Assembly: GCA_046563655.1 (NCBI GenBank)
Contig: CM102283.1
Span: 9,920,001-9,984,000 of the forward strand
Reading direction: 5' to 3'
DNA from: Yuukianura sp. NJ FZ-2021
Lineage: Eukaryota
Length of the DNA: 64,000 nt
Below, one piece after another: positions 37,390-59,212 of this stretch. The notes below the pieces were generated by a model that was given only the letters and a program-made list of their open reading frames with translations, was not told the origin of the DNA and did not search any database. Position numbers and translations under genes: made by a program. Each line of letters opens with the position of its first letter. Position 1 is the stretch's first letter.

Positions 37390-40300
37390 TTGTAGAGTTT
37401 CGAAGAAAAATATGATTGTATACCTTAGGAAGGGTTCCTCAGTAAGTTGTAGATTTTAGAAGAAAAATATTATCTAGTCTATACTTTAAAGGAAAGGGAC
37501 CTCAGTAATTTGTAGATTTTAGAAGAAAAATATTCTCTAGTTTCTAACTTTAAAGGAAAGGGACCTCAGTAATTTGTAGATTTAAAAAGAAAAATATTAT
37601 CTAGTTTCTAACTTTAAAGGAAAGGGACCTCAGTAATTTGTAGATTTAAAAAGAAAAATATTATCTAGTTTCTAACTTTAAAGGAAAGGGACCTCAGTAA
37701 TTTGTAGATTTAAAAAGAAAAATATTATCTAGTTTCTAACTTTAAAGGAAAGGGACCTCAGTAATTTGTAGATTTAAAAAGAAAAATATTATCTAGTTTC
37801 TAACTTTAAAGGAAAGGGACCTCAGTAATTTGTAGATTTAAAAAGAAAAATATTATCTAGTTTCTAACTTTAAAGGAAAGGGACCTCAGTAATTTGTAGA
37901 TTTAAAAAGAAAAATATTATCTAGTTTCTAACTTTAAAGGAAAGGGACCTCAGTAATTTGTAGATTTAAAAAGAAAAATATTATCTAGTTTCTAACTTTA
38001 AAGGAAAGGGACCTCAGTAATTTGTAGATTTAAAAAGAAAAATATTATCTAGTTTCTAACTTTAAAGGAAAGGGACCTCAGTAATTTGTAGATTTAAAAA
38101 GAAAAATATTATCTAGTTTCTAACTTTAAAGGAAAGGGACCTCAGTAATTTGTAGATTTAAAAAGAAAAATATTATCTAGTTTCTAACTTTAAAGGAAAG
38201 GGACCTCAGTAATTTGTAGATTTAAAAAGAAAAATATTATCTAGTTTCTAACTTTAAAGGAAAGGGACCTCAGTAATTTGTAGATTTAAAAAGAAAAATA
38301 TTATCTAGTTTCTAACTTTAAAGGAAAGGGACCTCAGTAATTTGTAGATTTAAAAAGAAAAATATTATCTAGTTTCTAACTTTAAAGGAAAGGGACCTCA
38401 GTAATTTGTAGATTTAAAAAGAAAAATATTATCTAGTTTCTAACTTTAAAGGAAAGGGACCTCAGTAATTTGTAGATTTAAAAAGAAAAATATTATCTAG
38501 TTTCTAACTTTAAAGGAAAGGGACCTCAGTAATTTGTAGATTTAAAAAGAAAAATATTATCTAGTTTCTAACTTTAAAGGAAAGGGACCTCAGTAATTTG
38601 TAGATTTAAAAAGAAAAATATTATCTAGTTTCTAACTTTAAAGGAAAGGGACCTCAGTAATTTGTAGATTTAAAAAGAAAAATATTATCTAGTTTCTAAC
38701 TTTAAAGGAAAGGGACCTCAGTAATTTGTAGATTTAAAAAGAAAAATATTATCTAGTTTCTAACTTTAAAGGAAAGGGACCTCAGTAATTTGTAGATTTA
38801 AAAAGAAAAATATTATCTAGTTTCTAACTTTAAAGGAAAGGGACCTCAGTAATTTGTAGATTTAAAAAGAAAAATATTATCTAGTTTCTAACTTTAAAGG
38901 AAAGGGACCTCAGTAATTTGTAGATTTAAAAAGAAAAATATTATCTAGTTTCTAACTTTAAAGGAAAGGGACCTCAGTAATTTGTAGATTTAAAAAGAAA
39001 AATATTATCTAGTTTCTAACTTTAAAGGAAAGGGACCTCAGTAATTTGTAGATTTAAAAAGAAAAATATTATCTAGTTTCTAACTTTAAAGGAAAGGGAC
39101 CTCAGTAATTTGTAGATTTAAAAAGAAAAATATTATCTAGTTTCTAACTTTAAAGGAAAGGGACCTCAGTAATTTGTAGATTTAAAAAGAAAAATATTAT
39201 CTAGTTTCTAACTTTAAAGGAAAGGGACCTCAGTAATTTGTAGATTTAAAAAGAAAAATATTATCTAGTTTCTAACTTTAAAGGAAAGGGACCTCAGTAA
39301 TTTGTAGATTTAAAAAGAAAAATATTATCTAGTTTCTAACTTTAAAGGAAAGGGACCTCAGTAATTTGTAGATTTAAAAAGAAAAATATTATCTAGTTTC
39401 TAACTTTAAAGGAAAGGGACCTCAGTAATTTGTAGATTTAAAAAGAAAAATATTATCTAGTTTCTAACTTTAAAGGAAAGGGACCTCAGTAATTTGTAGA
39501 TTTAAAAAGAAAAATATTATCTAGTTTCTAACTTTAAAGGAAAGGGACCTCAGTAATTTGTAGATTTAAAAAGAAAAATATTATCTAGTTTCTAACTTTA
39601 AAGGAAAGGGACCTCAGTAATTTGTAGATTTAAAAAGAAAAATATTATCTAGTTTCTAACTTTAAAGGAAAGGGACCTCAGTAATTTGTAGATTTAAAAA
39701 GAAAAATATTATCTAGTTTCTAACTTTAAAGGAAAGGGACCTCAGTAATTTGTAGATTTAAAAAGAAAAATATTATCTAGTTTCTAACTTTAAAGGAAAG
39801 GGACCTCAGTAATTTGTAGATTTAAAAAGAAAAATATTATCTAGTTTCTAACTTTAAAGGAAAGGGACCTCAGTAATTTGTAGATTTAAAAAGAAAAATA
39901 TTATCTAGTTTCTAACTTTAAAGGAAAGGGACCTCAGTAATTTGTAGATTTAAAAAGAAAAATATTATCTAGTTTCTAACTTTAAAGGAAAGGGACCTCA
40001 GTAATTTGTAGATTTAAAAAGAAAAATATTATCTAGTTTCTAACTTTAAAGGAAAGGGACCTCAGTAATTTGTAGATTTAAAAAGAAAAATATTATCTAG
40101 TTTCTAACTTTAAAGGAAAGGGACCTCAGTAATTTGTAGATTTAAAAAGAAAAATATTATCTAGTTTCTAACTTTAAAGGAAAGGGACCTCAGTAATTTG
40201 TAGATTTAAAAAGAAAAATATTATCTAGTTTCTAACTTTAAAGGAAAGGGACCTCAGTAATTTGTAGATTTAAAAAGAAAAATATTATCTAGTTTCTAAC

Positions 40301-43300
40301 TTTAAAGGAAAGGGACCTCAGTAATTTGTAGATTTAAAAAGAAAAATATTATCTAGTTTCTAACTTTAAAGGAAAGGGACCTCAGTAATTTGTAGATTTA
40401 AAAAGAAAAATATTATCTAGTTTCTAACTTTAAAGGAAAGGGACCTCAGTAATTTGTAGATTTAAAAAGAAAAATATTATCTAGTTTCTAACTTTAAAGG
40501 AAAGGGACCTCAGTAATTTGTAGATTTAAAAAGAAAAATATTATCTAGTTTCTAACTTTAAAGGAAAGGGACCTCAGTAATTTGTAGATTTAAAAAGAAA
40601 AATATTATCTAGTTTCTAACTTTAAAGGAAAGGGACCTCAGTAATTTGTAGATTTAAAAAGAAAAATATTATCTAGTTTCTAACTTTAAAGGAAAGGGAC
40701 CTCAGTAATTTGTAGATTTAAAAAGAAAAATATTATCTAGTTTCTAACTTTAAAGGAAAGGGACCTCAGTAATTTGTAGATTTAAAAAGAAAAATATTAT
40801 CTAGTTTCTAACTTTAAAGGAAAGGGACCTCAGTAATTTGTAGATTTAAAAAGAAAAATATTATCTAGTTTCTAACTTTAAAGGAAAGGGACCTCAGTAA
40901 TTTGTAGATTTAAAAAGAAAAATATTATCTAGTTTCTAACTTTAAAGGAAAGGGACCTCAGTAATTTGTAGATTTAAAAAGAAAAATATTATCTAGTTTC
41001 TAACTTTAAAGGAAAGGGACCTCAGTAATTTGTAGATTTAAAAAGAAAAATATTATCTAGTTTCTAACTTTAAAGGAAAGGGACCTCAGTAATTTGTAGA
41101 TTTAAAAAGAAAAATATTATCTAGTTTCTAACTTTAAAGGAAAGGGACCTCAGTAATTTGTAGATTTAAAAAGAAAAATATTATCTAGTTTCTAACTTTA
41201 AAGGAAAGGGACCTCAGTAATTTGTAGATTTAAAAAGAAAAATATTATCTAGTTTCTAACTTTAAAGGAAAGGGACCTCAGTAATTTGTAGATTTAAAAA
41301 GAAAAATATTATCTAGTTTCTAACTTTAAAGGAAAGGGACCTCAGTAATTTGTAGATTTAAAAAGAAAAATATTATCTAGTTTCTAACTTTAAAGGAAAG
41401 GGACCTCAGTAATTTGTAGATTTAAAAAGAAAAATATTATCTAGTTTCTAACTTTAAAGGAAAGGGACCTCAGTAATTTGTAGATTTAAAAAGAAAAATA
41501 TTATCTAGTTTCTAACTTTAAAGGAAAGGGACCTCAGTAATTTGTAGATTTAAAAAGAAAAATATTATCTAGTTTCTAACTTTAAAGGAAAGGGACCTCA
41601 GTAATTTGTAGATTTAAAAAGAAAAATATTATCTAGTTTCTAACTTTAAAGGAAAGGGACCTCAGTAATTTGTAGATTTAAAAAGAAAAATATTATCTAG
41701 TTTCTAACTTTAAAGGAAAGGGACCTCAGTAATTTGTAGATTTAAAAAGAAAAATATTATCTAGTTTCTAACTTTAAAGGAAAGGGACCTCAGTAATTTG
41801 TAGATTTAAAAAGAAAAATATTATCTAGTTTCTAACTTTAAAGGAAAGGGACCTCAGTAATTTGTAGATTTAAAAAGAAAAATATTATCTAGTTTCTAAC
41901 TTTAAAGGAAAGGGACCTCAGTAATTTGTAGATTTAAAAAGAAAAATATTATCTAGTTTCTAACTTTAAAGGAAAGGGACCTCAGTAATTTGTAGATTTA
42001 AAAAGAAAAATATTATCTAGTTTCTAACTTTAAAGGAAAGGGACCTCAGTAATTTGTAGATTTAAAAAGAAAAATATTATCTAGTTTCTAACTTTAAAGG
42101 AAAGGGACCTCAGTAATTTGTAGATTTAAAAAGAAAAATATTATCTAGTTTCTAACTTTAAAGGAAAGGGACCTCAGTAATTTGTAGATTTAAAAAGAAA
42201 AATATTATCTAGTTTCTAACTTTAAAGGAAAGGGACCTCAGTAATTTGTAGATTTAAAAAGAAAAATATTATCTAGTTTCTAACTTTAAAGGAAAGGGAC
42301 CTCAGTAATTTGTAGATTTAAAAAGAAAAATATTATCTAGTTTCTAACTTTAAAGGAAAGGGACCTCAGTAATTTGTAGATTTAAAAAGAAAAATATTAT
42401 CTAGTTTCTAACTTTAAAGGAAAGGGACCTCAGTAATTTGTAGATTTAAAAAGAAAAATATTATCTAGTTTCTAACTTTAAAGGAAAGGGACCTCAGTAA
42501 TTTGTAGATTTAAAAAGAAAAATATTATCTAGTTTCTAACTTTAAAGGAAAGGGACCTCAGTAATTTGTAGATTTAAAAAGAAAAATATTATCTAGTTTC
42601 TAACTTTAAAGGAAAGGGACCTCAGTAATTTGTAGATTTAAAAAGAAAAATATTATCTAGTTTCTAACTTTAAAGGAAAGGGACCTCAGTAATTTGTAGA
42701 TTTAAAAAGAAAAATATTATCTAGTTTCTAACTTTAAAGGAAAGGGACCTCAGTAATTTGTAGATTTAAAAAGAAAAATATTATCTAGTTTCTAACTTTA
42801 AAGGAAAGGGACCTCAGTAATTTGTAGATTTAAAAAGAAAAATATTATCTAGTTTCTAACTTTAAAGGAAAGGGACCTCAGTAATTTGTAGATTTAAAAA
42901 GAAAAATATTATCTAGTTTCTAACTTTAAAGGAAAGGGACCTCAGTAATTTGTAGATTTAAAAAGAAAAATATTATCTAGTTTCTAACTTTAAAGGAAAG
43001 GGACCTCAGTAATTTGTAGATTTAAAAAGAAAAATATTATCTAGTTTCTAACTTTAAAGGAAAGGGACCTCAGTAATTTGTAGATTTAAAAAGAAAAATA
43101 TTATCTAGTTTCTAACTTTAAAGGAAAGGGACCTCAGTAATTTGTAGATTTAAAAAGAAAAATATTATCTAGTTTCTAACTTTAAAGGAAAGGGACCTCA
43201 GTAATTTGTAGATTTAAAAAGAAAAATATTATCTAGTTTCTACTTTAAAGGAAAGGAACCTCAGTAATTTGTAGATTTTAGAAGAAAAATATTACCTATT

Positions 43301-43310
43301 TTATACTTTA
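37390..43310. repeat. 64-bp tandem satellite array, ~90 copies
   Basis: Unit AAAGGAAAGGGACCTCAGTAATTTGTAGATTTAAAAAGAAAAATATTATCTAGTTTCTAACTTT. The printed line pattern recurs every 960 bp (15 x 64). Copies look identical internally and are degenerate at both edges. Confidence 0.98.
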
Positions 43311-43539
43311 ACAGAGAATAATAAACTTTTTAAAAAATTTGTCTCTGAGTGAATTTGCACCTTAACAGAGAATAATAAACTTTTTAAAAAATTTGTCTCT
43401 GAATGTGAAAATACACCTTCAATGAAGGGGGCCTCGGTAATTAGTAGATTTTAGAAGAAAAATATTACCTATTTTATACTTTAACAGAGAATAATAAACT
43501 TTTTAAAAAATTTCTCTCTGAATGTAAATTTATACGTTT

Positions 43540-44520
43540 AAGGACTCGAAGCTTAGAACTAAAAATCTAATGGTTAAAAAGATAGAAAGTTGCGAAGGAT
43601 TTGAAGCTCAGAACCAAGAATTTAGTGGTTAAAAAGATAGAAAGTGGCGAAGGATTCGAAGCTTAGAATTAAGAATTTAATGGTTAAAAAGATAGAAAGT
43701 GGCGAAGGATTCGAAGCTTAGAATTAAGAATTTAATGGTTAAAAAGATAGAAAGTGGCGAAGGATTCGAAGCTTAGAACTACCAATTTAATGGTTAAAAA
43801 GATAGAAAGTTGCGAAGGATTCGAAGCTTAGAATTAAGAATTTAATGGTTAAAAAAATAGAAAGTGGCGAAGGATTCGAAGCTGAGAATTAAGAATTTAA
43901 TGGTTAAAAAGATAGAAAGTTGCGAAGGATTCGAAGCTTAGAATTAAGAATTTAATGGTTAAAAAGATAGAAAGTGGCGAAGGATTCGAAGCTTAGAATT
44001 AAGAATTTAATGGTTAAAAAGATAGAAAGTGGCGAAGGATTCGAAGCTCAGAACTACGAATTTAGTGGTTAAAAAGATAGAAAGTGGCGAAAGATTCAAA
44101 GCTTAGAACTAACAATTTAATGGTTAAAAAGATAGAAAGTTGCGACGGATTCGAAGCTTAGAATTAAGAATTTAATGGTTAAAAAGATAGAAAGTGGCGA
44201 AGGATTCGAAGCTTAGAATTAAGAATTTAATGGTTAAAAAGATACAAAGTGGCGAAGGATTCGAAGCTCAGAACTACGAATTTAGTGGTTAAAAAGATAG
44301 AAAGTGGCGAAAGATTCAAAGCTTAGAACTAACAATATAATGGTTAAAAAGATAGAAAGTGGCGAAGGATTCGAGGCTTAGAATTAAGAATTTAATGGTT
44401 AAAAAAATAGAAAGTGGAGAAAGATTGAAGCTTAAAAGTAAGGATTAAATATTTGAAAAGACCAAAAGTTGTGAATGATTCAAAGCCTAGAAATAAGGAT
44501 TTAAATATTTGAAAGCATAG
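43540..44520. repeat. 55-bp tandem minisatellite, ~17 copies
   Basis: Unit AAGGATTCGAAGCTTAGAATTAAGAATTTAATGGTTAAAAAGATAGAAAGTGGCG recurring at 43650, 43705, 43760, 43815 and so on, with point variants; it decays after ~44430. Confidence 0.96.
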
Positions 44521-44762
44521 AACTTTTAAAATCCCCCACTAAAAATACAAAAAGCAACGTTTGAGAAATAATTTAAAATTTAAAAAAAGTTTTCCTAGAG
44601 AAAAGTTGTTCTTAAAAGAACTTTTTAAATCCCCCACTAAAAATTCAAAAAGCAACGTTTGAGAAGTATAATTTGAACATTTAAAAGAAAAAAAAAGTTT
44701 TTCTAAAGAAAAGTTGTTTATAAAAGAACTTTTTAAATCCCCCTAAAAATTCAAAAAGCAAA
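44519..44762. repeat. ~100-bp tandem repeat, ~2.3 copies
   Basis: GAACTTTT(T)AAATCCCCC..TAAAAAT(A/T)CAAAAAGCAA recurs at ~44520, ~44618 and ~44726. Confidence 0.8.
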
Positions 44763-46039
44763 CCGTTTCTGATATTTGGTCATTTCTAAGCTATTACCCC
44801 TCCCAAATACTACTCCCGACTAGTCCCTACGGCTGAGCTAAAAATAGTGAGGCAGAGTCCCCCATAGCCACACTACTCCTTCTAAACAAAAACAAAAGTA
44901 CATAACTTCCGTTGAACTTTAAAATACTTAGGCAAAAATATAAGTCTTTTAGCATCTTGCCACTTATCTAAAACCACAACAAAAATAACGTCGGATCAGA
45001 ATCATAAAATAACTTTGGAATTGAGATGCTGTGGAATTCGTGGGTTGTTTTGAGAAGAATCTCTTAGCTAAAGATCTTTGAAGCGTACGTTAGGTAAATG
45101 AAGCCAGTGCCACCCAGCACTGGAACTGAATTGAGTCTAAGAAATGAAGATGGAATATAAACACTGATGGATACAAAGATGGCAAATGTTGGGCCATTTA
45201 TCTTCCTAGTTATCTCAATTCCATTTTTAGCACCTCATGTAAAGATTGAACCCCGGTAAAGTCCCTCCCTTCCGAATTTACGTTTGTTCAAGTGACCTGA
45301 CCTTTGAACTACGTTTGACCTCAACGGTTCTCACTATGACCAATTGAAGCCCAAACAAATGACTAAATGCCAACTAGGAGTAATGAAAAAGAGTGTTCCT
45401 TACCTTGTTATCAAAATGTGGAAAGTGGAATGTGAAAAGTGCTTCGCGTCCTACCTTCCAAGTACTTGAGCAACGATTGAAGTAGTAGAAATGGAGAGGT
45501 GGGAATGCTTCGTTGCCAAAGTTTGCACAAGAGGAACGACGACTGAAATGGAGAATTGAGATGCAGGATCAAAAGATTTGGAAGAGGTGATGCCGATTTG
45601 GAAGGTGATGATGTGGGTGTCCATTTTTAGAAAACCCCATTCCCAAGTCCCAACTAAAACAAAGCAACAAACATTGACCGTTAGACCTTATGACTTTTGG
45701 TTCCTTTAGTTGTTAGTTGTTGTTACCTGTAGTTGACACTTTGTATGGTCATGAGATTATGACTAACAACTACTAACTAACAACAATGGTTAATCGATGA
45801 ACGTTAATTAAACTTCAATTAAAGTAACGGACACTTTTACTTGCGGGAGAGGATACAGCTGAAGACAGAGCAACAAAAGTGACGACGAAGAGGAGACGAA
45901 TGCGGCAAGAAGGAGGGAGAAAATTCAAATGAAGGAGACGCCGGTTGCACTAAAAGCCCCACACAATACCCGTCACCCACCCTCTGCAGCGCCATCTCTC
46001 CAACACAACAACCCTTCCTCTCCTGGTCCAAGACAGAGA

Positions 46040-47297
46040 CGTGAGTGAAGGAGAGGAATAAATTGTGTGAACTTCCCTTTTATATGAAGCTGGAAGGAGT
46101 AGGATTCCTTTGGATTTTACTCTTTTGGAGTTGGATGGTGGGGGAGGGAGTGGGTGGCAATGGAAAAAATGCATGCAGGGACCACCCCAACTCCAAACCC
46201 CCAACATCTTCTTTTCACAAATTCAAAATACAATGTTTTCATAGTATGTGATGAACCTATTCTTTGAATCATTGGATTGGCAATTCAATCCATTAATTAA
46301 CTAAAAATAAGAGTTAATTAGAAATGACAATTAAAAATAGATGAAGAAGAAACAGATCCTGTTTGTTCACATAAGGAAACTATTATGTCTCCTCTTCCTT
46401 CATCTCTCGAGTGAGACCACAAAGTGAATGAAAAGAAATTGCTGAGCTTCCCTTTTATAGGAAGACGAAAGGAGTAGAACGAAGGAGTGTTTTACTCTTT
46501 TGGAGTTGGATGTTGGGGGAGGGAGTGGGTGGCAATGGAAAAAATGCATGCAGGGACCATCCCAACTCCAAACCCCCCAAAAACAAACATTTTCGAGTGA
46601 AAAAAACGGAGAAAGTTCCGCAGAACCAGCAGAATCTATTGGAGTTGACTCTCGTTCAATTTTATTTTGATTTTTGGAGACTTAAACACATCTTCTCCAT
46701 GCACTTTCGCTTGCTAAATCCAAATAAAAGTTCTATAAAGCTTTTCAATTTCAGGTTTTCTAAATTCTTTCTCCAAACTTTCTTTGTGCTTTCTTATGAA
46801 AGTTAAAAAATGAATTTTTCATCTTATTTAACCAAAAACAGAGCTAAAAATGGCAATTAATGAGGAAATTGATGTTTTTTTCTTGTAAAGAAACAGAAAC
46901 GACAGTTAAAACAACTTTCTTGTGTAAAAAGCCAGTTGCGATGACTTTCGACCATCATCGCGTCAGAAAAAGTTGAATTTTTTGAGTGTGAAAAGCACAG
47001 AAAGTTGCTGAGAACAGGGAGAGACTGTGTGAGTTGACTCCGCTTTATTCTCAGTTTCACTTTCGTCCACTCTCAATTCTCAAAACACAAATTCTCCATA
47101 CATTTTCTCTTGTTCAAACAAAATCAAGGGGCAAAAGCTTTCCAATTTCACTTTCTTTGCATTATTTTCACCAACTGTCTTCCTAGTTTTAGTTTCTGTT
47201 TGAAAATTCACTTTAATCAAAATCTAAGCGTGTAAAATGGAAGTTATGTTAAAAGAAGTGTTTCTTGTGATGAATAAAGATGGACTACACTAATGAA

Positions 47298-47337
<40 letters not shown>

Positions 47338-47712
47338 CTAGTTTTTTTATTAGTTTTTCATTTATTTATCGAATTTTTTCACAGTCACCTGCCTAATGAA
47401 AGTTGTTTCATTCTGATCAACCGCCATTTTCAGTACCAAATTAACCGTTAAAGGGTTCGTAATTTGCACAACTTTCCAATTGGCGAAATAACTTTCTCCT
47501 TGAATGCGTTTTTGGTCCTCATAAGAAGACAAGACGCCTTCCGAGCAACAAAGGCGCCAACTACTCAATTTAAAATTAAACTAAAATAAACAGTCCAACA
47601 AACAGTTTTTCTGTGCACCCGTCATAACTTCACATATGGGCATCTTTAAAAAATACAAACGAAAGACAATCTAGAAAACTGCGAAGAATCCACTCAAACT
47701 TAATTAGTTTTA
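46040..47712 (+). mobile_element. Dispersed non-coding repeat, left copy (probable non-autonomous element)
   Basis: 46312-47712 is the reverse complement of 64000-62682 at high identity. 46040-46205 is internally duplicated at 46420-46580. No transposase ORF is seen, and the left boundary is uncertain. Confidence 0.7.
47290..47404 (-). mobile_element. Short poly(A)-tailed retroposed insertion with 12-bp target-site duplication
   Basis: CTAATGAAAGTT at 47290-47301 and 47393-47404 flanks a 36-nt T run (47300-47335) plus ~57 nt of unique sequence. The insertion is absent from the inverted copy near 63010-63025. Confidence 0.8.
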
Positions 47713-47970
47713 GTAAAACGTAATGGTTCTGTGATGATCGTAAGTGAAACAAATTAAAATTTTATTTCCCAATCCTGAGGAGTTGAACAAAACAACGAAA
47801 ACCGCTTAAAAGGATAATCCATTTTGATTGAAATACTTTGCAATTTAAGAATGAAAACGAAAAGGATAGTGGTCTAAGTGTGAAATTCGTTGGGCAAGTG
47901 CTGTTTCAAATTTAACTTTTTGTTTTGAAAAATTGGAATTGTGTTTGATTCAAAGGCAGCGTTGTTTGAA

Positions 47971-48951
47971 TCATTTGGCTTGTTGAAGGAGAACCACGGC
48001 GTTTGCCAAGTTGGCGTCTTCCAACGTTGCTGTCTCATCTTCAATGACCTTGCTTGGATGACCAGCGAAAAGGCGAAACGGCACTTCAGCCAGCGATGGC
48101 CGAGCAATGGTGATGTACTGGCGGAGTTGTTCCACAGTCACCGTGTTGTTCAACACCACAGACATCCTGTTAATAAACAACATGTCACTAATTTCACTGT
48201 TTCTTCCGTTGGTTAAAAAAGACATTCTTACTTCTTTCCATCCAAAAGGCGAACTTGCATTTTGCAAGTTGGTTTCTTGTCATCCACTCGGAAGATCTCT
48301 TTCGCTTGGTCCTCGCATTTTGCATTCAAAGCCTCATCTTCGCTCCCAACAGAAGTGGCTGAAGAGCCGCCAGTGACACTGTTGACCAAGTTTCCAATCC
48401 AAGCACCAAGTCCCTGGGAAGTAGACGATGCAGAGGTCGTAGTAGACTCGCTCCCAGTTGCGCTGTTCAAAGTGTAGCCACTTCCACTGAACGTATCAGC
48501 TGAACCGTGCTTCACAATGGTTGCCTCCAGTGAAGCCACGTCTGCCCCCGAGAATCGGTGCACTTCATTCGAATTCTTCACGAACACAAACGTCTAAAAG
48601 AAATAAACATGAGTTCCAATTAATACTTGAAATGTTTAGTTTTGGACAATTACTGGCATGCTGCGAATGTTGTAATCCTGAGCCACATCAGAACAATCGT
48701 CCACATCCACTTTGAAGAATTTCGTCCCTGTGTACTTTTGACTCAGGCGGTCGAATTCCGGGGAGATGAATTTGCATGGACCACACCTTGAATAAATGAG
48801 ATGTAAAGTGGGGAAAACATCAATGCAATTTAATTTGTCTTTTTCCAATTAATTACCACTGGGCCGTGAAATCCAGAACGGACAGTTTGCTTCCAGCCGC
48901 TCCAAGTTCCGATTCCAGATGATCAGCATCACGAATTACAGTGACAGTCAT
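47971..48951 (-). CDS. Thioredoxin (WCGPC) - SHP box - UBX domain fusion protein, ~261 aa
   Basis: Four phase-compatible exons: 48951-48857, 48786-48654, 48593-48232, 48166-47971. Trx domain MTVTVI...VLDFTAQWCGPCK...KVDVD...MPTF...FSGAD; SHP-like FSGSGYTL; C-terminal VDDKKPTCKMQVRLLDGKK...ARP...HPSKVIEDETATLEDANLANAVV, resembling the p47/NSFL1C UBX domain. Confidence 0.88.
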
Positions 48952-49462
48952 ATTGATATCTTCTCCTCTATCAAGTAAATATGAACAGCGATTAAACGAT
49001 GAATCCAAACAATAGTCTTATTCTCTTATTAGCGTAATTCACCTGTCTTTGATGATCACTTAAGCACGACTTCGAGATGAATTTAGGAAGCCGAATGGAT
49101 AGAAAGGGCGCAATTAGTCACACCACCTTACACTCCAATTCTCGACTGATCTCAAGATGAAATGAGGAATTTGTCTTTTTAATACTCTCGCAAAGTCATC
49201 ATCATGTGTCCTCATTTATCTCTAAAAAAAAGCCGCTATCTCTTTACATGCTTTTTATAGCGCATCTTCACCTTATGACGTAACATCTGATTGTTTAGCT
49301 TTTTAAATTTGGCGCTCTAAAATGTTTCAGCATGCCCCAAAGTAAGGACCATCGTTGAGAGCACTAATTAGCAAGAACGATTAATCTAGTATTTCGTTTT
49401 GCGAAAAAGAGATAATGAATTTGGAGAAATGGTGTTGAGAAGTTTGTGCTTGTCGGTTAGCT

Positions 49463-50660
49463 CTAAGTCCCTCCTTCCGGAAGAACTTCTTCGATGATGA
49501 GAGAACCGTCAGGGCGACGTGCTACTTTGAGATTATCCACAGCCACACCCTCCGGAATTTCGATGATTTCTGTCACTTTGCGAGCGTGGTTCGTGCTGTC
49601 CTTTGGACGATAAGCCACAACCTACAAAAAGAATGATAAAGTACTTCAGTTTGAAAAAGTAGAAACTAAGTCGTACGATGACACGGCGTCCGTCCAGGTC
49701 CAGTGAAATGTTGTCGTTGGAGAAACCCTGGAGGTCAACAGTCGTTTGATAAGGAACTTTCTGTGGTGGCTGGATCACAACTCCTTTGGTGGAGGGAGGT
49801 GCAGTGGAACGGACTCGCTTTCCAGTTGCTTTGGATCCAATCATCTTCGGCTTCTTCTTCCCTTGGATGTTGTGATTTGCGCCATTTGATCGCGACACTC
49901 CAGGAACGTCTCTGAGGCCTCTAAGTAATCACAACAAAATATTTACATGAGCCTCTTTCCAAAAATGAACAATTTCCTTACTTTGATTGAATCTCATCTG
50001 CAACTCGCGCCAAAACCAGCTCCAGCGATTTGGAATAGTCAGAAACTATGTCTTTCTGGGAAACGGCATTTTGATTCAGCGCTGAAGCTTTGGTCTGAAC
50101 CACTTCTTTCGGTTTCTCCACTGCTGGGACGACGGGTATCGGCTGTGTTTGTTGGACTTGGGTCGGAACGTGCGTTACATCAACAGAGGCAGTGAGTGGA
50201 GGAACTGAAACTGCAGATACTTCGGCCTTGGCTGAAACGTCGGATTGACACTCCTTACGACGTCGGGAAGTTTTATCACACAGACGCCCAACATGCTCTC
50301 TCATCTTGTCCGAATTGAGACTCAAAGCAGCCTTCCGAGCACTGTCGCTACCTATACAACAAAAATAACAAAGTTATAATACACTAAATAATTAAAAGGA
50401 ATACTTTTGGAAAAGAATGAACTGTTGGGAGTACCTTGGAGGGCTTTCATGTCAGCGACGACCATTCCGACTGCAATGTTGATCCTTCCAGCACGATCTT
50501 TCTCCTCCACGTTCAGAACAGACTGAGTTTCTGAGTTCATGACGATGAGACCAGGGCCACTGTCCTTCTTTTCCATTTCTGCTCGGATTTCCTTGATGGA
50601 CTTCTTCCGCGGGGGCTTCCCTTTGGATTTGGTGGGATTCGAGTGATGTGGAGGCGACAT
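49463..50660 (-). CDS. ~332 aa protein with a divergent C-terminal alpha-crystallin (HSP20-like) domain
   Basis: Exons 50660-50435, 50351-49982, 49920-49677, 49621-49463 splice in phase. The C-terminus YQTTVDLQGFSNDNISLDLDGRRVIVVA...KVTEIIEIPEGVAVDNLKVARRPDGSLIIE follows the ACD pattern. The start codon is less certain. Confidence 0.68.
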
Positions 50661-51068
50661 TCTTCCGAAGTGTCAACAAAAAAATGTTGCCCAACCTTAC
50701 GAAACGTAACTTCTATCTCAAGATACAGATGAAAAGGAAAGACAAAAGAAGATAGAAAGTTGTTGACTGAAACAAAAATGCTGTTATTTGGTTCCTCCGG
50801 GAGAACAAAACACAAATTAGGAATTGGGGATTCTGTTCCTAATAAAACCTTCATAAATAATTAGAACGTACAACTAATTAATGTGAATACTTTGAATGGG
50901 ATACCCTAATAAGGAGTACCTTAAGTGACATTCTGAGGGAGTATTTTTAACAATGTGAAAAAGTATCACTAAAACACAACACTCAGTTAACAATTGTAAA
51001 TTAGAAAGAGAAGGAAATGAATTGGAAAAGAAGATTTTGACTAAAAGTTGAAGTTTGGCGGTTAGTTA

Positions 51069-54000
51069 TTACCTCCATGCTTGTTCCAGTTGCTTCTTTG
51101 CACTTAGGCGTTTGGAGACGTATGCTCCGATGACGAGAGCTCCAAGAACAACCATGATAAACCAATGGTCAAAGTCATCTTTCAGAACATCAAACTGCTT
51201 CGACGGGGCAACTTTCGTGTAGAAAATGTCTGAAACACAAAGACAATTGAATTAAAATATAATTGTAAAGTGAATTGAATTTTGAAAAGTGAGTTACCGA
51301 TGCCGTAGACTAGAACAAGGCAGGTAGACTCGAGGCGAGTGGGCCACGTCTTGATTCCTCTCACTCTCTTCACACTCTGGTTGTAGTTGATGATCATGTC
51401 CGGTGGGAGGGGCAGTTCTGGAATGTAGGGCACAGAGTGGATCACTCCATCTTCATCTTGGTGGATTTGGTGATGCTGGGCACTGAGACGAGGCTGCATC
51501 ACGAACTTCGGCAGTTCCAGAATTCCGCCGGTTGGAAGAGCGAGTAGAATGTCCTTGTTTGTGATCCCCTTCTCAGTCCGAGTGTAGGACATGAACTCAA
51601 TCTTCGTGGGGAAAATATAGGACTGTTTGATCACAATTGGTTCAATCGAGGGAGCAGCAAAGGAAGAAAACACTAAAAACAGCAGTAGTTTTTAAGTTAT
51701 ACTTTCATCAATTTGCAATCGTCAGTGTAAAGTGTTGGGTGATTTTAAATTTACCTGTGGAGTTACTCTGTGTTTGTCCTTCGTACAGTTCCACGGAAGT
51801 GATTTCGTAGCGCCGATTCTTTTCGTTGAAGAGAGAGTAGACTAGCCAGTGTTCTGTGTGCACTACATGGACGGGACCACGGCTTTTCTTGTGCCAAAAC
51901 GAGTGAATCACAGCACCTAAAAGTAAACCGTCAACTAATCAAAATCACTTTTCAAGATTGAATTTTAAAAAATGAAAAACTTGTTACCGGAGACGGCATC
52001 TACAAGAAGGACATTGACATTGCCAACTTCTGGTTCTGCTGTGACTACTGCCACTAAGTTTGGATTCATGTACTTGTAGGAGACTGATCTGTCAGGAAGC
52101 ACACGACCCTGAGAATGGATCTTCTCACACGGAAGTTTCCCATGCACTCCGATTAACTCTGACTTCCCAATTGGCAACTTCCACAGAAGATGAGCTCCAA
52201 AAGTCTGGAAATGAAATGAACAAGAATTAAAAAAAAGAATTTAGAGGAGCGAGTGATTATGTTTGAATTCGAGTGACTTACATTTGATTTTCCATCTTTC
52301 CGCACACTGAATCCTTTGAGTACTGGTTGTTCCGATTTGTGTGCCACAAAGAAGAACAAATTGTTTAACTCTGCTACCCTTGGCGGGTAAGTGTGGATTT
52401 TGTTGTTCTTGTCCAGCAACACGACTGGTTTGAGGAAGTTGGTTTCCTGTGTTCCATGCAGCAGCATTTGAGCTTGAACAATTGGAGGATAGATTTGAGG
52501 CTCATCGGAATGCTGGCCTTCGATTGGATTGAATGGGAAGAGAATAGTGGAGTCTGATTTGGAGCTGCTGTAAAGGACACTGGCTAAAGGCTTGAGCGGA
52601 AAATACTTGGCTGGACGCTGGATGCTTAGCAGCACAGAAGAATCTTGGAAAGTTTTGAATTCCGGAAGGAGAAAGGCGTACAGAATTTGGCCAGAGGAAC
52701 CATCCATTCCAATCACCTATACACAAAAATCAAAACTTATTTTTCTAAACACAAAAGTAAGAAAATATTAAAAACGAGATGTGACACATACTTTTCCGAC
52801 AGCGGTGACAAAGATGATGACCTTGTTGACTCCGAATCTGTCGTCATTGGAAGTGTAGAATCTGTCTCCTGTAACTAGTGTGTCCACTTCATACTTGACT
52901 CTGGACAGGAAGGATTTGAGTAGTCCCTGTTGCGAAGAGTAGGGATTCCACGACTGCTCTGCCTCACTTGGATAGTCAACAGTCTCCACTGCCAGTGTAG
53001 AAGCGAGGCTCTCTTGTCTGGACCAACTCACTTCCAGCTCTCCTTGTCCTTCACCCTCCAATTTACTTCCGAACAGAAGTTCATCCTTCGTGAATCCAAC
53101 GAGGCCACAGGCTGAACCATGGCAAAACGCTTTGGTCAAAGCCAACGAACTAATGAGCATCTTCGCATTCACTTGTTGAGAGTGGCTCCTAACTCCTTCT
53201 AATGTCCCACTGTCAAAGGCATCCATTTGAATGGAATGTGCTGAAACAAGTCGTGTGATGAACAGAAGACTCTTCCCATCTACTTTTGCTTGAGACAGCG
53301 TTGGAAAGTAAGCAGTGTTTGAGTAAGGAATTGGAACAAGATTTGGCGACGATCTAGCCAAAGATATAACCAAGATTAGGAAAATTACATCAAAATAAAA
53401 TGAATCAACTACTCTAACTTACGTTTCGCTTTCAGTTATTTTGAAGATTTTGACAAATCCGCTCCCTTTGACAGCTACTGCAGCGACGTCACCGGAAGTC
53501 CCACTAATTTCATTCACTTCCCCATCTTCAATGTTTATCAAGTTCATCTTTGAATTTGACAAGTTAAGAACTTGAACTTTCCTTCCATTGGTACAAACAA
53601 AGTAGACTCCCACAGATTCACAGAACTTCAGCTGGTCCAATGATGCTGTAAACTTGTGACTGCCCACGTTCTTCAACTTTGCATTGTTCTTGGAGTTGGA
53701 GTAGTCGTCACTCTCAACAGTGCTCACTTCGTAGGAAGAAATAGTGAAGGTAGGGAAAGCAGAAGAATCAACCAAATAGACATTTCCTCCGGATGTACTT
53801 GCATAGTTGGCCTTTTGTTTGAAGCTCCATTCGTTGACTTGAATGCCAGTGGAGGTCAAAAAAGTTCTGACTTTGACTTGGTCAGTGGAAGAGGACACAC
53901 TGAGGATCTCCTTGTCCCCGAAAGTGGCCAAGTGGAGTAGTTGTGCATTGGACTCTAGGATTCTGCGGTACAACACAGCTCCTAAACAAAGGACAGAATT

Positions 54001-54344
54001 ACATTGACTACTTCCTTTAGTGTAGTGGGTTTTTAGTAGTAATAGATCCAACTGACCAGTATTAGAATTGACTGCTCCAATAACGTTGTGAGTTGTACCC
54101 AGAATGACTCTCTTTGGTTGATTCAAGTCGTTTAGTAGAAATCGAACATGTCCAAAGTATTTCTGATGCCTACAATCAAAACATAAAATCCGTTACGAAC
54201 TTGCTCAGTAGTTGGTGGTCTATAGTTTCATAGATCGTTTTACCAGTCAAATTTCCCAGCTTGATCTTCGAAGAGTGCGACAACGTTTGAGAAGAACAAG
54301 AATAGAAGAAGTATGGCGAAGGATTGTCTCCATGAAGTCTGCAT
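51069..54344 (-). CDS. EMC1: ER membrane protein complex subunit 1
   Basis: Nine exons: 54344-54244, 54169-54057, 53981-53423, 53353-52792, 52716-52282, 52204-51988, 51916-51755, 51672-51298, 51229-51069. Signal peptide then LFEDQAGKFDW; IHSQGRVLPDRSVSYKYMNPNL; TEKGITNK; PYIPELP; LESTCLVLVYG; PSKQFDVLKDDFD; C-terminal TM ending LEQAWR. Confidence 0.96.
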
Positions 54345-54951
54345 TTTGAAGGGGAATCTGAAGAGTGGTTTTCAAGGGAATTTTAAGGATGTAGGTCGAC
54401 AGTCAAATCCAGGCCAGTCCCTCTAAAGAGGGGAAGTTGATGATTCCACAAAAAATTGAATTAGTTGAAAATGACAATGGATAACTGGAAAGAAGGAATG
54501 GAATTTAGTGAAGTTTTGAAGTGAGAATGGGAAAGTGTTTTGACAAGAAATGAGGTACCTGTTGCGGTGTCCACTTCCAGTATCCAGTTAGTTGTCTTCG
54601 TATGTCCCAATCCCAATTAATCTTGATAGTTTGCAAAACCGATTGATTGGAAATTCTAAAAAGGAGTCCGGAAAATCGGCGGAATTTCAGAAACCTCTAC
54701 TCCAACATGAAAATTTAAATTTGAATGTGAAAAAAGCGCGCCATTGAATGTATGAAATGAGACTCCTCTCCATAGGTGGAGCGAGTGTCTTCAGATTCAA
54801 TGGTCGCACACATAAACTAATTCAATTAATTAGAAACTGTAATTAACACTTATGGTTGCAAGTGTTAGGACAATTTGACATTCAATCGTTAAACAATGAA
54901 AGAAAAGAGCCAATGCAAGCTATCATGCAACATTTTCCTCAGTACATCACT

Positions 54952-55257
54952 TCAAAATAGGATTTTGTCGTTACCTTGGAAACAGCCTGTGCCGTTCTTG
55001 TTTGTTAGAAACAAATTGGAAATCAATTCAACTTGTGCAAAACTGTCAAGGTCAAAGGCAGCAAAAGCATCAACACCAACATTTTTAGCCTCACTTGTGT
55101 CGATTGGATTCTTGTGCAAAATAAATTGACATTCTCTGAGAGAAAGTATCGACAGAAGAGAGTGAATCTTGGAGTTGGGAATGGGTGAAGCTGGAATTTC
55201 GCCGACAGCCAAGGCGTATGGCTGTGATGGTCCTGGAGGATGGGTAACATTGTCCAT
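54952..55257 (-). CDS. Possible small orphan protein (101-aa ORF, may be spliced at ~54974)
   Basis: ATG-initiated ORF with coding-like composition in a gene-dense island and a plausible donor AAG|GTAACG. No family recognised. Confidence 0.3.
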   Translation of the reverse strand: MDNVTHPPGPSQPYALAVGEIPASPIPNSKIHSLLSILSLRECQFILHKNPIDTSEAKNVGVDAFAAFDLDSFAQVELISNLFLTNKNGTGCFQGNDKILF

Positions 55258-55470
55258 ATCATCAATTGACTAAAACATAAACTCAATTAACAGTAAGGAT
55301 TGACTTGCTAGGTGGCATTCCCCAAGGAAATCCCTAAGCGTCATGCGCTGACTGAAAGTGTCCTAAGAGTCGACTATCCCTGCGGTCGGCCAGCTAAAAC
55401 CACTCTTGGCTCCTCCGTGTAAGGAAATTCCACTTTAAACTTCATTTGAACAACTGTAAAAAGCATTCAA

Positions 55471-56418
55471 ATGATGTCCAGGCTCAGTTCAAACTTGGAA
55501 GGATCGGGACAGGACGGCCAAAGAAATCTGTGTGTACTGGATGAATCTGCCACCGGAAACAGAGCAGACGACAACGAAGAAGATGCTGGAGCAACGGTCA
55601 ACATCACGGTGGCTCCAGGAACTCCAGCGGAGATTTGCTTACGCCCACAACCAATTCTACAAACTCAAACAATGTAAAAATTAACTTTACATTTTCAATT
55701 CAAAATTAAAGAGTTGAATTTTGATAGTTACGCGAATCCACCCACAATTGAGGACTGCTGTTCTGATGGACGTCGTCTGGACACGTTGGAACAAGAAGTG
55801 GCCAAGATTGTTGGTCCACATGAAGAGATTGAGATGGGAATGAAGAACTGGGCGCAGTGTCAGTCTGTGTGTCAGCCACTACTCCCAAAGTATCCGTGTC
55901 GAGGCGTCATTCGGTCAGCGATTTAACCTAAACAAAACAATTAAAATCAGCATTAAAATTGTTTGACTTTTAGTTCTCCGCGACCCGACTGGCCTAAACT
56001 GAGTTTGGAAGAACGGTGCAAGCCTTCACTCGTGTCCACTCGAGAAGCTGACCCAGAAGGAAGTAAGCCACTGACTGGTCGAGAGTTTGTGGAGGGCAAG
56101 AAGACGTGTGACCTCTACCCAATCCACCCCAACCTCCCTCCACGATTCAACAACTCAGAGTGGTTCAAGGTAAGACACAACTACAAAGTGAACTGGACAA
56201 TATCTGGATACTGTGCCTTGCAGGGTTATGGGTGTGAGAATCCTGCGCATCCTTTCTACATGACGACCAGCATGGACTATGGCCGATTCCCACCAACTGC
56301 TCACACCATGACGCAATCCTACTACCCGCGACAGTCTCAATTCTCAAGCAACTTGGCCAAAGCGGGAATGCCACGCAACAGATCTCTCAACTTGGCCAAC
56401 GACAAAACCATTGTCTAA
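55471..56418 (+). CDS. PIERCE1/2 (C9orf116/C15orf65, DUF4490)-like protein with N-terminal extension, ~277 aa
   Basis: Exons 55471-55673, 55728-55913, 55974-56418 are in phase. The C-terminus HPFYMTTSMDYGRFPPTAHTMTQSYYPRQSQFSSNLAKAGMPRNRSLN matches the recalled family motif (Y.T....YG...P..H.M...F.P....FS..L...GM.RN..LN). Confidence 0.75.
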
Positions 56419-56751
56419 AACAACCTCAATCTTAATCCATCTCTACAAAAACAAAATAGATACAAATATTAATCCACAAATAAATAAAAAATAAATGGAT
56501 AAAGTCAATGCAACTACCATCAAACTACAGCAGATTCTCCTTTCACTTCCATTTACTTATTTCCACAGTGAGCGACGAACCTTATGTAGCAAACGATTTC
56601 AACTAAAAAGTGAAAGGGGAAGTGGTGATGAATTAGTATTTTGAAATGTATCATTTCATAGTTCGTTTATAACTAAGGAAACGCGTCAATTGAACGCGTG
56701 TTACCGACTAAACGACTGGATTAGATTGAATGCGGATATCCAGGATCTTGT

Positions 56752-57335
56752 CTACTTCTGAGCCTGAGCCGCATTGGCTGATCCGTTTTTCTTGGTTTTG
56801 TAGTCATGCAGAGCTGCTCGAATGGCATCTTCTGCCAACATGGAGCAGTGGAGCTTGACTGGAGGGAGACTCAGCTCCTTGGCGATGTCTGTGTTCTTGA
56901 TCTTCATCGCATCATCCAGCGACTTCCCTTTGATCCACTCTGTGGCCAGTGAACTAGATGCAATGGCCGATCCGCAGCCGAAAGTCTTGAATTTCGCATC
57001 CACAATCCTCCCTTCTTCGTCCACTTTGATTTGCAACTTCATGACGTCTCCACATGCTGGTGCACCCACCTGTAATCCAAGTTTAAATATGGATTAAACT
57101 CTAAGTGCTCAGTTTTTAGTGGTAAGTGACTAACGAGTCCAGTTCCGACGTTGTTGTCGTTCTTGTCGAGAGATCCGACATTGCGAGGGTTTTCGTAGTG
57201 GTCGATTACTTTCTCATGGTAGGACGCCGAGGGCTGGACTTGAACTGCAGCGGGTGACATCAAGGGGTAGGAAGCAGAACGCAGTCCAAGTAAACGTGAA
57301 GCACTGAAGCAACTTCGCGCAATTGGATTCGACAT
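56752..57335 (-). CDS. IscU: Mitochondrial iron-sulfur cluster assembly scaffold IscU
   Basis: Exons 57335-57135 and 57069-56752. Presequence-like N-terminus; YHEKVIDHYENPRNVG, GAPACGDVM, FKTFGCGSAIASSS, LPPVKLHCSMLAEDAI. Confidence 0.97.
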
Positions 57336-59212
57336 CTTCTGCTCAACAAATAACAAAGTTAACAAATCAAACAACAAAAAGATACCAACATGCCTATGAA
57401 GAAATGACGTTGTAATTTCTATTTATAAACATCAAACGGAGAGGCGTCAACGTTTTCGTTTCTGGAATTTTCCTAATGGATACTTTGTACATGTGTAAAT
57501 TCCTAGTTAAATACTAACATGAATGACAGTTCCAGTCAGATGACTTACCAAAAGGATCCAATAGTTGAAACAAGTGGCAACTGATAGGTTGATCGTTGAG
57601 TGTGTCCAGATGACAGATTGTTTATGTTAGTTGTTTGTTAATTAGTAATTAAGTAATAGTTCAATTAATCTACGACTTAAATTGTTTTCTAAATTAGAGT
57701 AAAAGACAGCTGATGGAACGGAAAATGAAAAGAGAATGGCCATACATTGAGACACTCACTCTCAATCCTCATCCCACAATTCATTTATGGGCACAATCAT
57801 GACTTTAACTTTGAAATTAAGTTCTACAGTTTTAATAACTATTAAAATCAACCTTTCAATTTCTGTTAAGCTTAGTTTATGAAGTTTAACATATTTTAAT
57901 TAAGTGTAACCAATTAAACTGCAACTCATTCGCAAATAAGGTAATTATTATGGGGATGTTGTGCATGTATGGAAGGGTGGTGGGGAGATGAGGGAATCCA
58001 GTTTGGCGGTAACTCAAGAAGACACTTGGGTTTGAATTCAAATTCAATTGGCGCCTCAAATCCATTCCCAAATTAGTGTCTCAAGTTATGCCCCCAACAT
58101 AAAGAAATCATAAGATTCGCAGCATACAAATTAAGTTAAAACTGCCACTGATTATGATTGTAATAGTTAATTTAATTGTGACACTTTATTCAAGTCACCA
58201 CTTGAGTCTCCGCTTACAGCCACAATTCCCCATTTAAATAGCCAAGTTGTGAAGAAATGGAGGAAAACTTACAAAAACATAGCCTACTTCCTTGGCCTTT
58301 TACAATGAACATTAATGAGGAATTAATGACCCCACTCACAGCCCTTCCTCTGCCCCCTCCAAAATACTGACCTTCCTTCTATCACTAATCCTTACAGTAG
58401 AATAAATTAGAGCTCAAATGCTAGGTGACCGGGAATAGTTTTAGAGAGTGGAAAAGGAAAAGTACAAAAGATCCCAAGTGAGGACGCTCACAAAGCGACT
58501 GCTAACAGAAAAGAGTAGTTGAAATATCATTGGCAGAGGGTTATTGGCGTAAGGTGACAATTGTGGTGGAAACATTAAAGCTACTTGTCATGGAACATGG
58601 GTTGACACGCTCTTAACAGAGATAAAGACATGATAAACAATTGATGTTTGAGTAGAAGCTTCAGATATCCAATCACTCACTTAACTTCTTACTTTTTACA
58701 TTGACACATTCATGCTACTCCACTCAATCCGACTTACAAAGCGACTTATGTTTTACATTCATTATCGTACAACTCTACAACTAAACTATACAACTAGCTG
58801 CCACTTTAGTCTTCCACATTTGTAGCTTCCAATTCTAGCCAATGTCACCAAAATTGGAAGCCTCACTACACTAATCGATTAATCTATAACGAGTTGGTAG
58901 TGTTGTAGACGCTGCGAAGTGCGTTATGTCTAACAGTCCATTCACACACTAATACAACTTATGTTTTGATTAGAGTAATGCTGCCAAATGTTAATTAAAG
59001 CAGCATTTGTCAGAGTTAGGAGACATTTGTAAGAGTAGACTAACGAAGGGTCCTAAGGAATAAAGTATACAAAGTGAGTCATTACAATCTAACTTAAATT
59101 AAACTTAGGGTGATGAGCTCGTTAGATCATGATGATTCCCCGCCATTCGGTGGACATTCGTAAGAGTAACGTTGGGGAGCAGCGGGTAGTTTTGGTGATT
59201 CTGAGATTTAGG

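Follow-up and report, generated by a model that had tools for sequence, protein, structure and literature searches.

Can a redox-active thioredoxin and the p97-binding tail of a p47-type cofactor be parts of one protein, and what would such a combination do? The question is raised by a gene on the minus strand (48951..47971) of a 64,000-nucleotide stretch of DNA from Yuukianura sp. NJ FZ-2021 (GenBank assembly GCA_046563655.1, contig CM102283.1, positions 9,920,001 to 9,984,000), hereafter the window. As read from the sequence with a splice model, the gene comprises four exons, 786 nt when spliced, with 261 codons and a stop, and runs from an ATG at 48951-48949 to a TGA at 47973-47971. It encodes, in this order, a thioredoxin (Trx) with the active site WCGPC, an SHP box (FSGSGYTL), a Ser/Thr/Gly linker and a UBX domain. 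The locus is confirmed as a real, single protein-coding gene under purifying selection. Its product is probably a functional, soluble 261-aa disulfide reductase tethered to p97, although p97 binding, activity and targets are what we infer from the evidence set out below.

The four-exon reading frame and the positions of all its elements, including the SHP box, had been noted in the original prediction and were confirmed here (Table 1). The same applies to its statement that the thioredoxin C terminus, the SHP box and the start of the UBX domain share one exon, since all of exon 3 is contained in a single open frame (48593-48228). Because this exon alone bridges the thioredoxin C terminus to the UBX start, the fusion does not depend on the choice of splice sites or on the joining of two genes. 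Two of the exons are recognizable by themselves in Pfam: exon 2 matches Thioredoxin with 47.5 bits (cut-off 23.5), and exon 4 matches UBX with 27.8 bits (cut-off 21), covering profile positions 24-81 of 82. Exon 1 (31 aa) gave no Pfam match and exon 3 only matches below the cut-off.

When exon 3 was used in a word-based search of longer proteins, a single match was obtained, the 257-aa protein P0003, which contains both Thioredoxin and UBX domains. The spliced window protein and P0003 can be aligned over their whole lengths, with 161 of 265 columns identical (61%, E 1e-124) and no gaps at the exon junctions, and the N terminus supplied by the 95-nt exon 1 aligns with P0003 residue 1. No entry for the window's own protein was found in the protein collections searched. 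A scan of metagenome contigs revealed 17 loci, three of which (L001, L002 and L003) span the whole protein. L001 contains the 257 codons without interruption (127-897), and these correspond to the P0003 reading frame. In L003 the exons measure 95, 133, 365 and 196 nt, vs. 95, 133, 362 and 196 nt in the window, and its GT-AG introns lie at matching positions with equal phases. The first and last introns are kept in L002 and the middle one is absent, leaving three exons. Two fragments, P0043 and P0023, terminate where exon 3 ends by homology, and the matching part of P0043 also starts at the corresponding exon 3 start; a prokaryote-style gene caller yields pieces of this kind on a genomic exon.

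Comparison of the window gene with L003 over 261 codons gave the proportions of non-synonymous (pN) and synonymous (pS) differences as 0.18 and 0.71, respectively, quoted as proportions and not as a ratio since the synonymous sites are saturated. By section, pN and pS were 0.16 and 0.74 for the thioredoxin, 0.22 and 0.61 for the SHP box with the linker, and 0.18 and 0.75 for the UBX domain. Translated comparison (tblastx) of L001 or L003 with window positions 40000-58000 found nothing in common beyond the exons of the gene, while L002 gave one extra short piece of 23 residues (21.7 bits) at 45948-45880, which we take as chance. L001 extends for more than 1 kb after the stop codon (900-2031), and, beginning roughly 450 nt beyond the stop, the sequence looks coding by eye; if it is coding, L001 is genomic DNA with an intronless copy of the gene and not a cDNA.

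The gene model could in principle be an artefact of joined genes or describe a decaying pseudogene, given that the window gene is known from genomic DNA alone. We consider this hardly credible. Exon 3 bridges both parts in one frame, which rules out a two-gene join, and the protein is collinear over its full length with the uninterrupted L001 frame. The exon lengths and phases agree with those of L003, the splice sites are canonical, the frame is unbroken and the constraint on non-synonymous sites is strong.

The nature of the thioredoxin part was evaluated from the window protein and from P0003, the orthologue for which structural models were made. P0003 scores 91.5 bits against the Pfam Thioredoxin family (PF00085) and matches solved thioredoxin chains with E-values down to 3.7e-32. 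Its model has a predicted local confidence (pLDDT) of 91-97 in residues 1-100 and can be superposed on the thioredoxins of Drosophila and human with a target TM of 0.90-0.98 at about 50% identity. In an alignment of 18 relatives (A1), four residues never vary (W32, C33, C36 and P76, the cis-Pro), and D27, G34 and P35 almost never do; all of these residues are kept in the window protein. The domain combines a PF00085 score above the cut-off, the WCGPC site with the buried Asp and the cis-Pro (MPT) loop, and, on P0003, the thioredoxin fold. It therefore appears to be a classical cytosolic-type, catalytic-looking thioredoxin, for which these residues predict reductase activity. Cytosolic thioredoxin 1 (human TXN, Drosophila Trx-2) has the same fold and active site at about 50% identity, but it is a stand-alone, tail-less protein of about 105 aa, whereas the window protein continues into an SHP-UBX tail.

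Thioredoxin-fold domains are found together with UBX domains in the p97 cofactors FAF1, FAF2 and UBXN7, and in this respect these proteins are like the window protein. Their UAS domain, however, lacks the C-x-x-C motif and is described as not being a reductase (PMC8181520), while the window domain carries WCGPC and scores as classical PF00085. The possibility that the window gene encodes an inactive thioredoxin fold of the UAS type was ruled out on these grounds.

The SHP box is located a few residues past the thioredoxin. In the alignment of the short Trx-SHP-UBX form, 17 of 18 rows have an SHP motif at this position, the exception reading FSGQSYSL; the consensus of the motif is given in PMC8181520 as F-x-G-x-G-x-x-h. 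Residues F111, G113 and L118 of the box are invariant in alignment A1, and within the clade formed by the window protein, L001/P0003, L002 and L003 the box as a whole is invariant (F, both G, and Y-T-L). The linker that follows is poorly conserved except for a motif, G-L-G-x-W-x-G-x-L with the residues after it, found in the window protein, L001/P0003, L002, L003, P0043, P0023 and P0009, while most other members are without it. This motif sits in a low-confidence stretch of the P0003 model, and we know of no p97-binding motif that it resembles.

The UBX domain was assigned by Pfam to residues 177-254 of P0003, corresponding to residues 181-258 of the window protein, with 44.1 bits over profile positions 2-81. 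The solved chains closest in sequence to exon 4 are those of p47/NSFL1C (E 7e-8 to 1e-6) and UBXN2B (4e-6), and matches to PUX5 (0.0045), TUG (0.1) and yeast Shp1 (0.2) are far weaker. A model of the C-terminal 108 residues of P0003 (pLDDT 86.8), with the beta-grasp fold of ubiquitin-like domains, gave as its best Foldseek match p47 C (1s3s_H), with an E-value of 4.6e-9, TM 0.83, rmsd 1.2 and 33% identity over 97 columns. Seven of the top eight matches (E 5e-9 to 5e-8) are p47 chains, taken from six entries, and the other is an Arabidopsis CDC48A-N/PUX5 SHP-UBX entry; p37, UBXD7, Shp1 and FAF1 are among the further ones. Because the 97 superposed columns take in the helix preceding the UBX domain, the whole stretch from this helix to the C terminus is p47-like. 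The initial designation of the domain as p47-type was thus borne out by Pfam, by the nearest solved sequences (p47 and UBXN2B) and by the fold match.

One position of this domain is unusual. We take the signature of a p97-binding UBX domain to be an Arg in strand 1 and a Phe-cisPro touch-turn in the S3-S4 loop, whose Phe presumably enters a hydrophobic cleft of the p97 N-domain and contacts p97 in the p47 and FAF1 complex structures. The title of PDB entry 3qca speaks of a conserved "FcisP touch-turn motif", and the S3-S4 loop with its "crucial proline" is referred to in PMC8181520. Of the 18 rows, 16 retain the Arg of the first strand, including two fragments (P0023 and P0043) that reach only that strand, and the loop Pro (P230), which the window protein has, does not vary in the family. 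The residue before this Pro is Phe or Tyr in 12 of the 16 rows covering the region, His in the window protein and P0003, Met in one row and Ala in another. L002 and L003 also have His, so that it is found in all four clade members. The window protein has the Arg and the Pro of the signature and lacks the aromatic residue before the Pro, and its UBX domain is therefore not assigned the canonical signature.

The replacement of Phe by His could mean that the UBX domain of the window lineage lost p97 binding, and that the ubiquitin-like tail serves another purpose, for example docking on some other ubiquitin-like receptor. The occurrence of His-Pro in place of Phe/Tyr-Pro throughout the clade would fit this, as would the non-aromatic residues of the two other family rows (M-P and A-P). 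Such a loss is nevertheless improbable. The SHP box of the clade is intact and invariant, neither the Arg of the first strand nor the loop Pro has been lost, and the rest of the UBX domain is still closest to p47. Moreover, the UBX section has a pN of 0.18 against a pS of 0.75, and the His is conserved over four diverged loci, which argues that it has been selected and does not reflect decay. The His before the UBX-loop Pro and the G-L-G-x-W-x-G-x-L motif mark the window lineage as a variant within the family; the two features could indicate an altered, perhaps pH- or redox-tuned, engagement of p97.

Among characterized proteins, the best sequence and fold matches of the tail are p47 (NSFL1C, Shp1) and p37 (UBXN2B), which share with the window protein the C-terminal order of SHP box, helix and UBX domain. 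Unlike the window protein, p47 contains UBA and SEP domains, in place of which the window protein has an N-terminal thioredoxin. The UBX loop reads G-H-P-S-K in the window protein and T-F-P-N-K in p47, and the window protein has only one SHP box. No Pfam match to SEP or UBA was obtained with any exon (E up to 1) or with P0003 (E up to 0.01), while two p47-like proteins included in the P0003 scan as controls, P0005 and P0006, matched SEP with 57.7 and 84.8 bits. Membership of the p47 family was ruled out by the missing SEP and UBA domains; only the C-terminal module is common to both. The architecture first proposed, in which a WCGPC thioredoxin is followed by an SHP box and by a UBX domain of the p47 type but no SEP is present, was upheld.

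The closest functional analogy is provided by TXNL1/TRP32, in which, as predicted for the window protein, an N-terminal redox-active thioredoxin is followed by a C-terminal module docking on an AAA+ unfolding machine (PMC12700817). TXNL1 docks via its PITH domain on Rpn11, Rpn2 and Rpn10, whereas the window protein has an SHP box and a UBX domain, with p97 as the predicted target. PITH was without a match in the Pfam scans of the window exons, P0003 and the family representatives, and the lack of this domain rules out that the window protein is TXNL1. The name "thioredoxin-like protein 1", given in RefSeq to the Bradysia coprophila record, looks like a misnomer, as judged via the representative of its cluster, the B. 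odoriphaga protein P0027, for which Pfam finds Thioredoxin and UBX.

To assess the distribution of this architecture, 1.84 billion representatives of 50%-identity clusters were searched exhaustively by HMMER with P0003 as the query (E up to 0.001). This produced 45,663 matches, nearly all of them thioredoxins, and the best 150 were examined. These were screened locally in two ways, by comparison to the P0003 UBX segment and by means of a family-derived UBX profile, which matched 30 of the 150. Pfam was then run on 36 proteins, 31 flagged by either screen and five picked by hand (P0007, P0010, P0016, P0025 and P0078). Both Thioredoxin and UBX were found in 29 of the 36, i.e., in at least 29 of the best 150 representatives; the seven without both domains are the exon-sized fragments P0023 and P0043, the multi-thioredoxin proteins P0007, P0010, P0016 and P0025, and P0128.

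Several forms could be distinguished among the proteins with both domains. The short Trx-SHP-UBX form (199-302 aa) accounts for 14 representatives, and 15 full-length short-form relatives, all carrying Thioredoxin and UBX by Pfam, are collinear with the window protein. In two representatives the thioredoxin precedes a whole p47 (Trx-UBA-SEP-UBX). A Trx-UBA-UBX form, some members of which have a ZZ or OTU1-type zinc finger, comprises nine representatives with a UBA match and two similar ones without it; an SHP-type motif just after the thioredoxin is present in five of the six of these 11 proteins examined for it and absent from the other. The remaining forms are single representatives: in one, thioredoxin and UBX domains both occur twice, and the other has an extra bacterial-PH match.

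The deposited names of the fusion proteins vary widely. Among animals, they come from the flies Bradysia coprophila (the record discussed above) and Bradysia odoriphaga (hypothetical), the springtail Orchesella cincta ("Thioredoxin") and the flatworm Cichlidogyrus casuarinus ("NSFL1 cofactor p47"). Fungal members are those of Neoconidiobolus thromboides ("thioredoxin-like protein") and of the chytrids Phlyctochytrium and Entophlyctis (hypothetical). Among algae and protists they are found in the green algae Trebouxia and Apatococcus (hypothetical), the streptophyte alga Spirogloea muscicola (gene identifier only), the glaucophyte Gloeochaete wittrockiana (transcriptome identifier only) and the alveolate Chromera velia ("Thioredoxin domain-containing protein"). 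The domain order of the short form, at a protein size of about 200-265 aa, was found in Bradysia, Orchesella cincta, Trebouxia, Spirogloea muscicola, Chromera velia, Neoconidiobolus thromboides and metagenome proteins.

A look-up with P0003 in the ESM Atlas, whose rows are leads without alignments, gave three Thioredoxin+UBX clusters, of 50 members (commonest phylum Chlorophyta), 123 members (Rotifera) and 153 members (automatically named "Thioredoxin/UBX domain-containing protein"), and a Thioredoxin+UBX+UBA cluster of 51 members (Rhodophyta). In a further cluster, with 98 members and Bacillariophyta as the commonest phylum, Thioredoxin is combined with PUB. PUB is described as another p97-binding domain (PMC8181520), and the cluster would show thioredoxin linked to p97 by a second, independent route, though as a lead only.

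The original prediction had regarded a Trx(WCGPC)-SHP-UBX protein as undescribed, and had named beforehand a widespread annotated family as the finding that would speak against it. This part did not stand: the architecture is widespread in the databases, with the representatives and the automatically named Atlas cluster described above, and its annotation is automatic only. The window gene, itself unannotated, belongs to a eukaryotic family that is widespread and catalogued but apparently uncharacterized. Full-text searches of open-access PubMed Central and bioRxiv found no description of a thioredoxin-UBX fusion. To our knowledge, no UBX protein catalogued for human, yeast, Drosophila, C. elegans or Arabidopsis contains a catalytic thioredoxin, and such absence of the class from the standard model organisms would explain the silence of the literature. 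In those passages of related papers that mention thioredoxin, the word refers to the inactive UAS domain (PMC8181520), to general redox chemistry (PMC13616930) or to an expression tag (PMC5042407).

Whether the fusion arose once or several times was addressed with a quick tree built from thioredoxin domains, 36 in all (20 from fusions and 16 stand-alone; 105 columns), from which multi-domain and longer stand-alone thioredoxins had been left out. Two of its 33 inner branches were starred. The fusion label needs six changes on this tree, of which the starred branches force only one. The history proposed at first, in which the thioredoxin replaced the N-terminal part of p47, is one possible history; the forms known beside it are thioredoxin added to a whole p47 (Trx-UBA-SEP-UBX) and Trx-UBA-UBX.

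What the protein may do can be proposed from what is known of its parts. The elements of UBX proteins that contact the p97 N-domain are given in PMC8181520 as the SHP box together with the UBX domain, and p47 and Ufd1-Npl4 are reported to bind this domain in a bipartite manner, in which an SHP box is paired with a UBX or UBX-like domain (PMC5042407). Since both elements are present in the window protein, its SHP-UBX tail would dock it on p97/Cdc48. The flexible, disordered linker would then let the thioredoxin sweep the surroundings of the unfoldase and reduce disulfides there. The targets could be client proteins whose disulfides hinder unfolding, following the logic put forward for TXNL1, a redox-active thioredoxin docked on the 26S proteasome, for which co-degradational resolution of disulfides that otherwise block unfolding has been proposed (PMC12700817). 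Alternatively, the target could be a redox-sensitive cysteine of the p97/Cdc48 N-domain itself, beside which a p47-type tail would place the thioredoxin. In yeast, Cys115 of Cdc48, a conserved residue of the N-domain near the interface with Shp1-UBX, is reported to act as a reversible redox switch affecting Shp1 binding (PMC12137173). The data favour neither of these two options over the other.

The same domains and the same tethering logic would also suit a redox sensor or client-recognition module, in which oxidation of the thioredoxin switches p97 binding or mixed disulfides recruit oxidized proteins. The dependence of the yeast Cdc48-Shp1 association on the redox state of Cys115, as presented in PMC12137173, is in line with this, and the conserved hydrophobic motif of the linker could turn back onto either the thioredoxin or p97. 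The window protein, however, has the active site and the supporting residues of a fully catalytic thioredoxin, which are invariant or nearly so in the family, and a pure sensor needs no resolving cysteine, yet C36 is invariant. We therefore regard a sensor function as unlikely.

The tethered reductase is favoured further by the recurrent linkage of thioredoxin to p97-binding modules, namely UBX, UBX with UBA, and PUB. Several points weigh against it. The p97 binding is a prediction from the sequence and fold of the tail, and the reductase activity is deduced from residues. The models describe P0003, 61% identical to the window protein, and in its model the SHP box and linker (residues 110-151, about 40 residues) have a pLDDT of 41-48, although low values are to be expected for linear motifs and are uninformative either way. 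In the window lineage His replaces the Phe or Tyr before the loop Pro. Finally, the gene model derives from genomic DNA and relatives, and its expression is predicted.

On a broader scale, it is quite possible, and is put forward tentatively, that the proteins combining Thioredoxin and UBX form an unstudied class of p97/Cdc48 cofactors coupling disulfide reduction to unfolding, a p97 counterpart of TXNL1. The recurrence of this natural fusion across eukaryotes is a hint of the Rosetta-stone type that thioredoxin and p97 cooperate. The family bears on two open questions, the handling of disulfide-bearing clients by p97/Cdc48 and the resetting of its own redox-sensitive cysteines, and it offers a ready-made tool, since a trapping mutant should capture the relevant substrates. 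It is the family as a whole that makes an interesting object; the window gene itself is more modest and adds a lineage variant.

Table 1. Exons, introns and protein-level features of the thioredoxin-UBX gene (positions in the window).
Feature	Positions	Strand	Description
Exon 1	48857..48951	-	Start codon, thioredoxin residues 1-31, first two bases of the WCGPC Trp codon
Intron 1	48856-48787	-	70 nt, GT..AG; splits the Trp codon of WCGPC
Exon 2	48654..48786	-	Last base of the Trp codon, CGPC (48785-48774), thioredoxin core to the cis-Pro motif (SMP)
Intron 2	48653-48594	-	60 nt, GT..AG
Exon 3	48232..48593	-	C-terminal strands and helix of thioredoxin, SHP box, Ser/Thr/Gly linker, pre-UBX helix, first UBX strand
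SHP box FSGSGYTL	48468..48491	-	Fits the consensus F-x-G-x-G-x-x-h
Linker motif G-L-G-x-W-x-G-x-L and following residues	48369..48413	-	Conserved within the poorly conserved linker
Predicted helix before UBX	48294..48350	-	By homology to helix 154-172 of P0003 (full and C-terminal models)
UBX domain, first part	48232..48281	-	First strand with the conserved Arg in MQVR
Intron 3	48231-48167	-	65 nt, GT..AG
Exon 4	47971..48166	-	Rest of the UBX domain and TGA stop
His-Pro of the UBX S3-S4 loop	48055..48060	-	By alignment to p47 chains: GHPSK in the window, TFPNK in p47

Other features were found on both sides of the gene, whereas Rfam at its gathering thresholds gave no match anywhere in the window. 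Downstream of it lies an 88-nt direct repeat in two copies (46115-46202 and 46490-46577), 98% identical and 375 nt apart; the open reading frames over the two copies read alike and gave no family match. Directly upstream, on the same strand, long open frames at 49466-50672 have no Pfam match (E up to 0.01) and probably represent a gene of unknown family. They are followed by exons of an EMC1 gene, located within 51185-54192 on the minus strand, with a match to EMC1_C of 116 bits on 51185-51691 and a weak match to the N-terminal beta-propeller of EMC1 on 53422-54192 (33.4 bits, just below the cut-off of 34). One EMC1 exon gave no match in a word-based protein search (E up to 1e-5), and another retrieved from the Atlas only beta-propeller clusters that are unrelated. 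An open reading frame on the plus strand (55957-56415) matches PIRC1_2 with 79 bits; this family, Piercer of microtubule wall, is an inner protein of the ciliary doublet, and its presence suggests a ciliated eukaryote. A gene for an iron-sulfur scaffold of the ISCU type (NifU_N) is encoded by at least two exons at 56755-57422 on the minus strand, the main one scoring 147.5 bits and the upstream one 30.4 bits.

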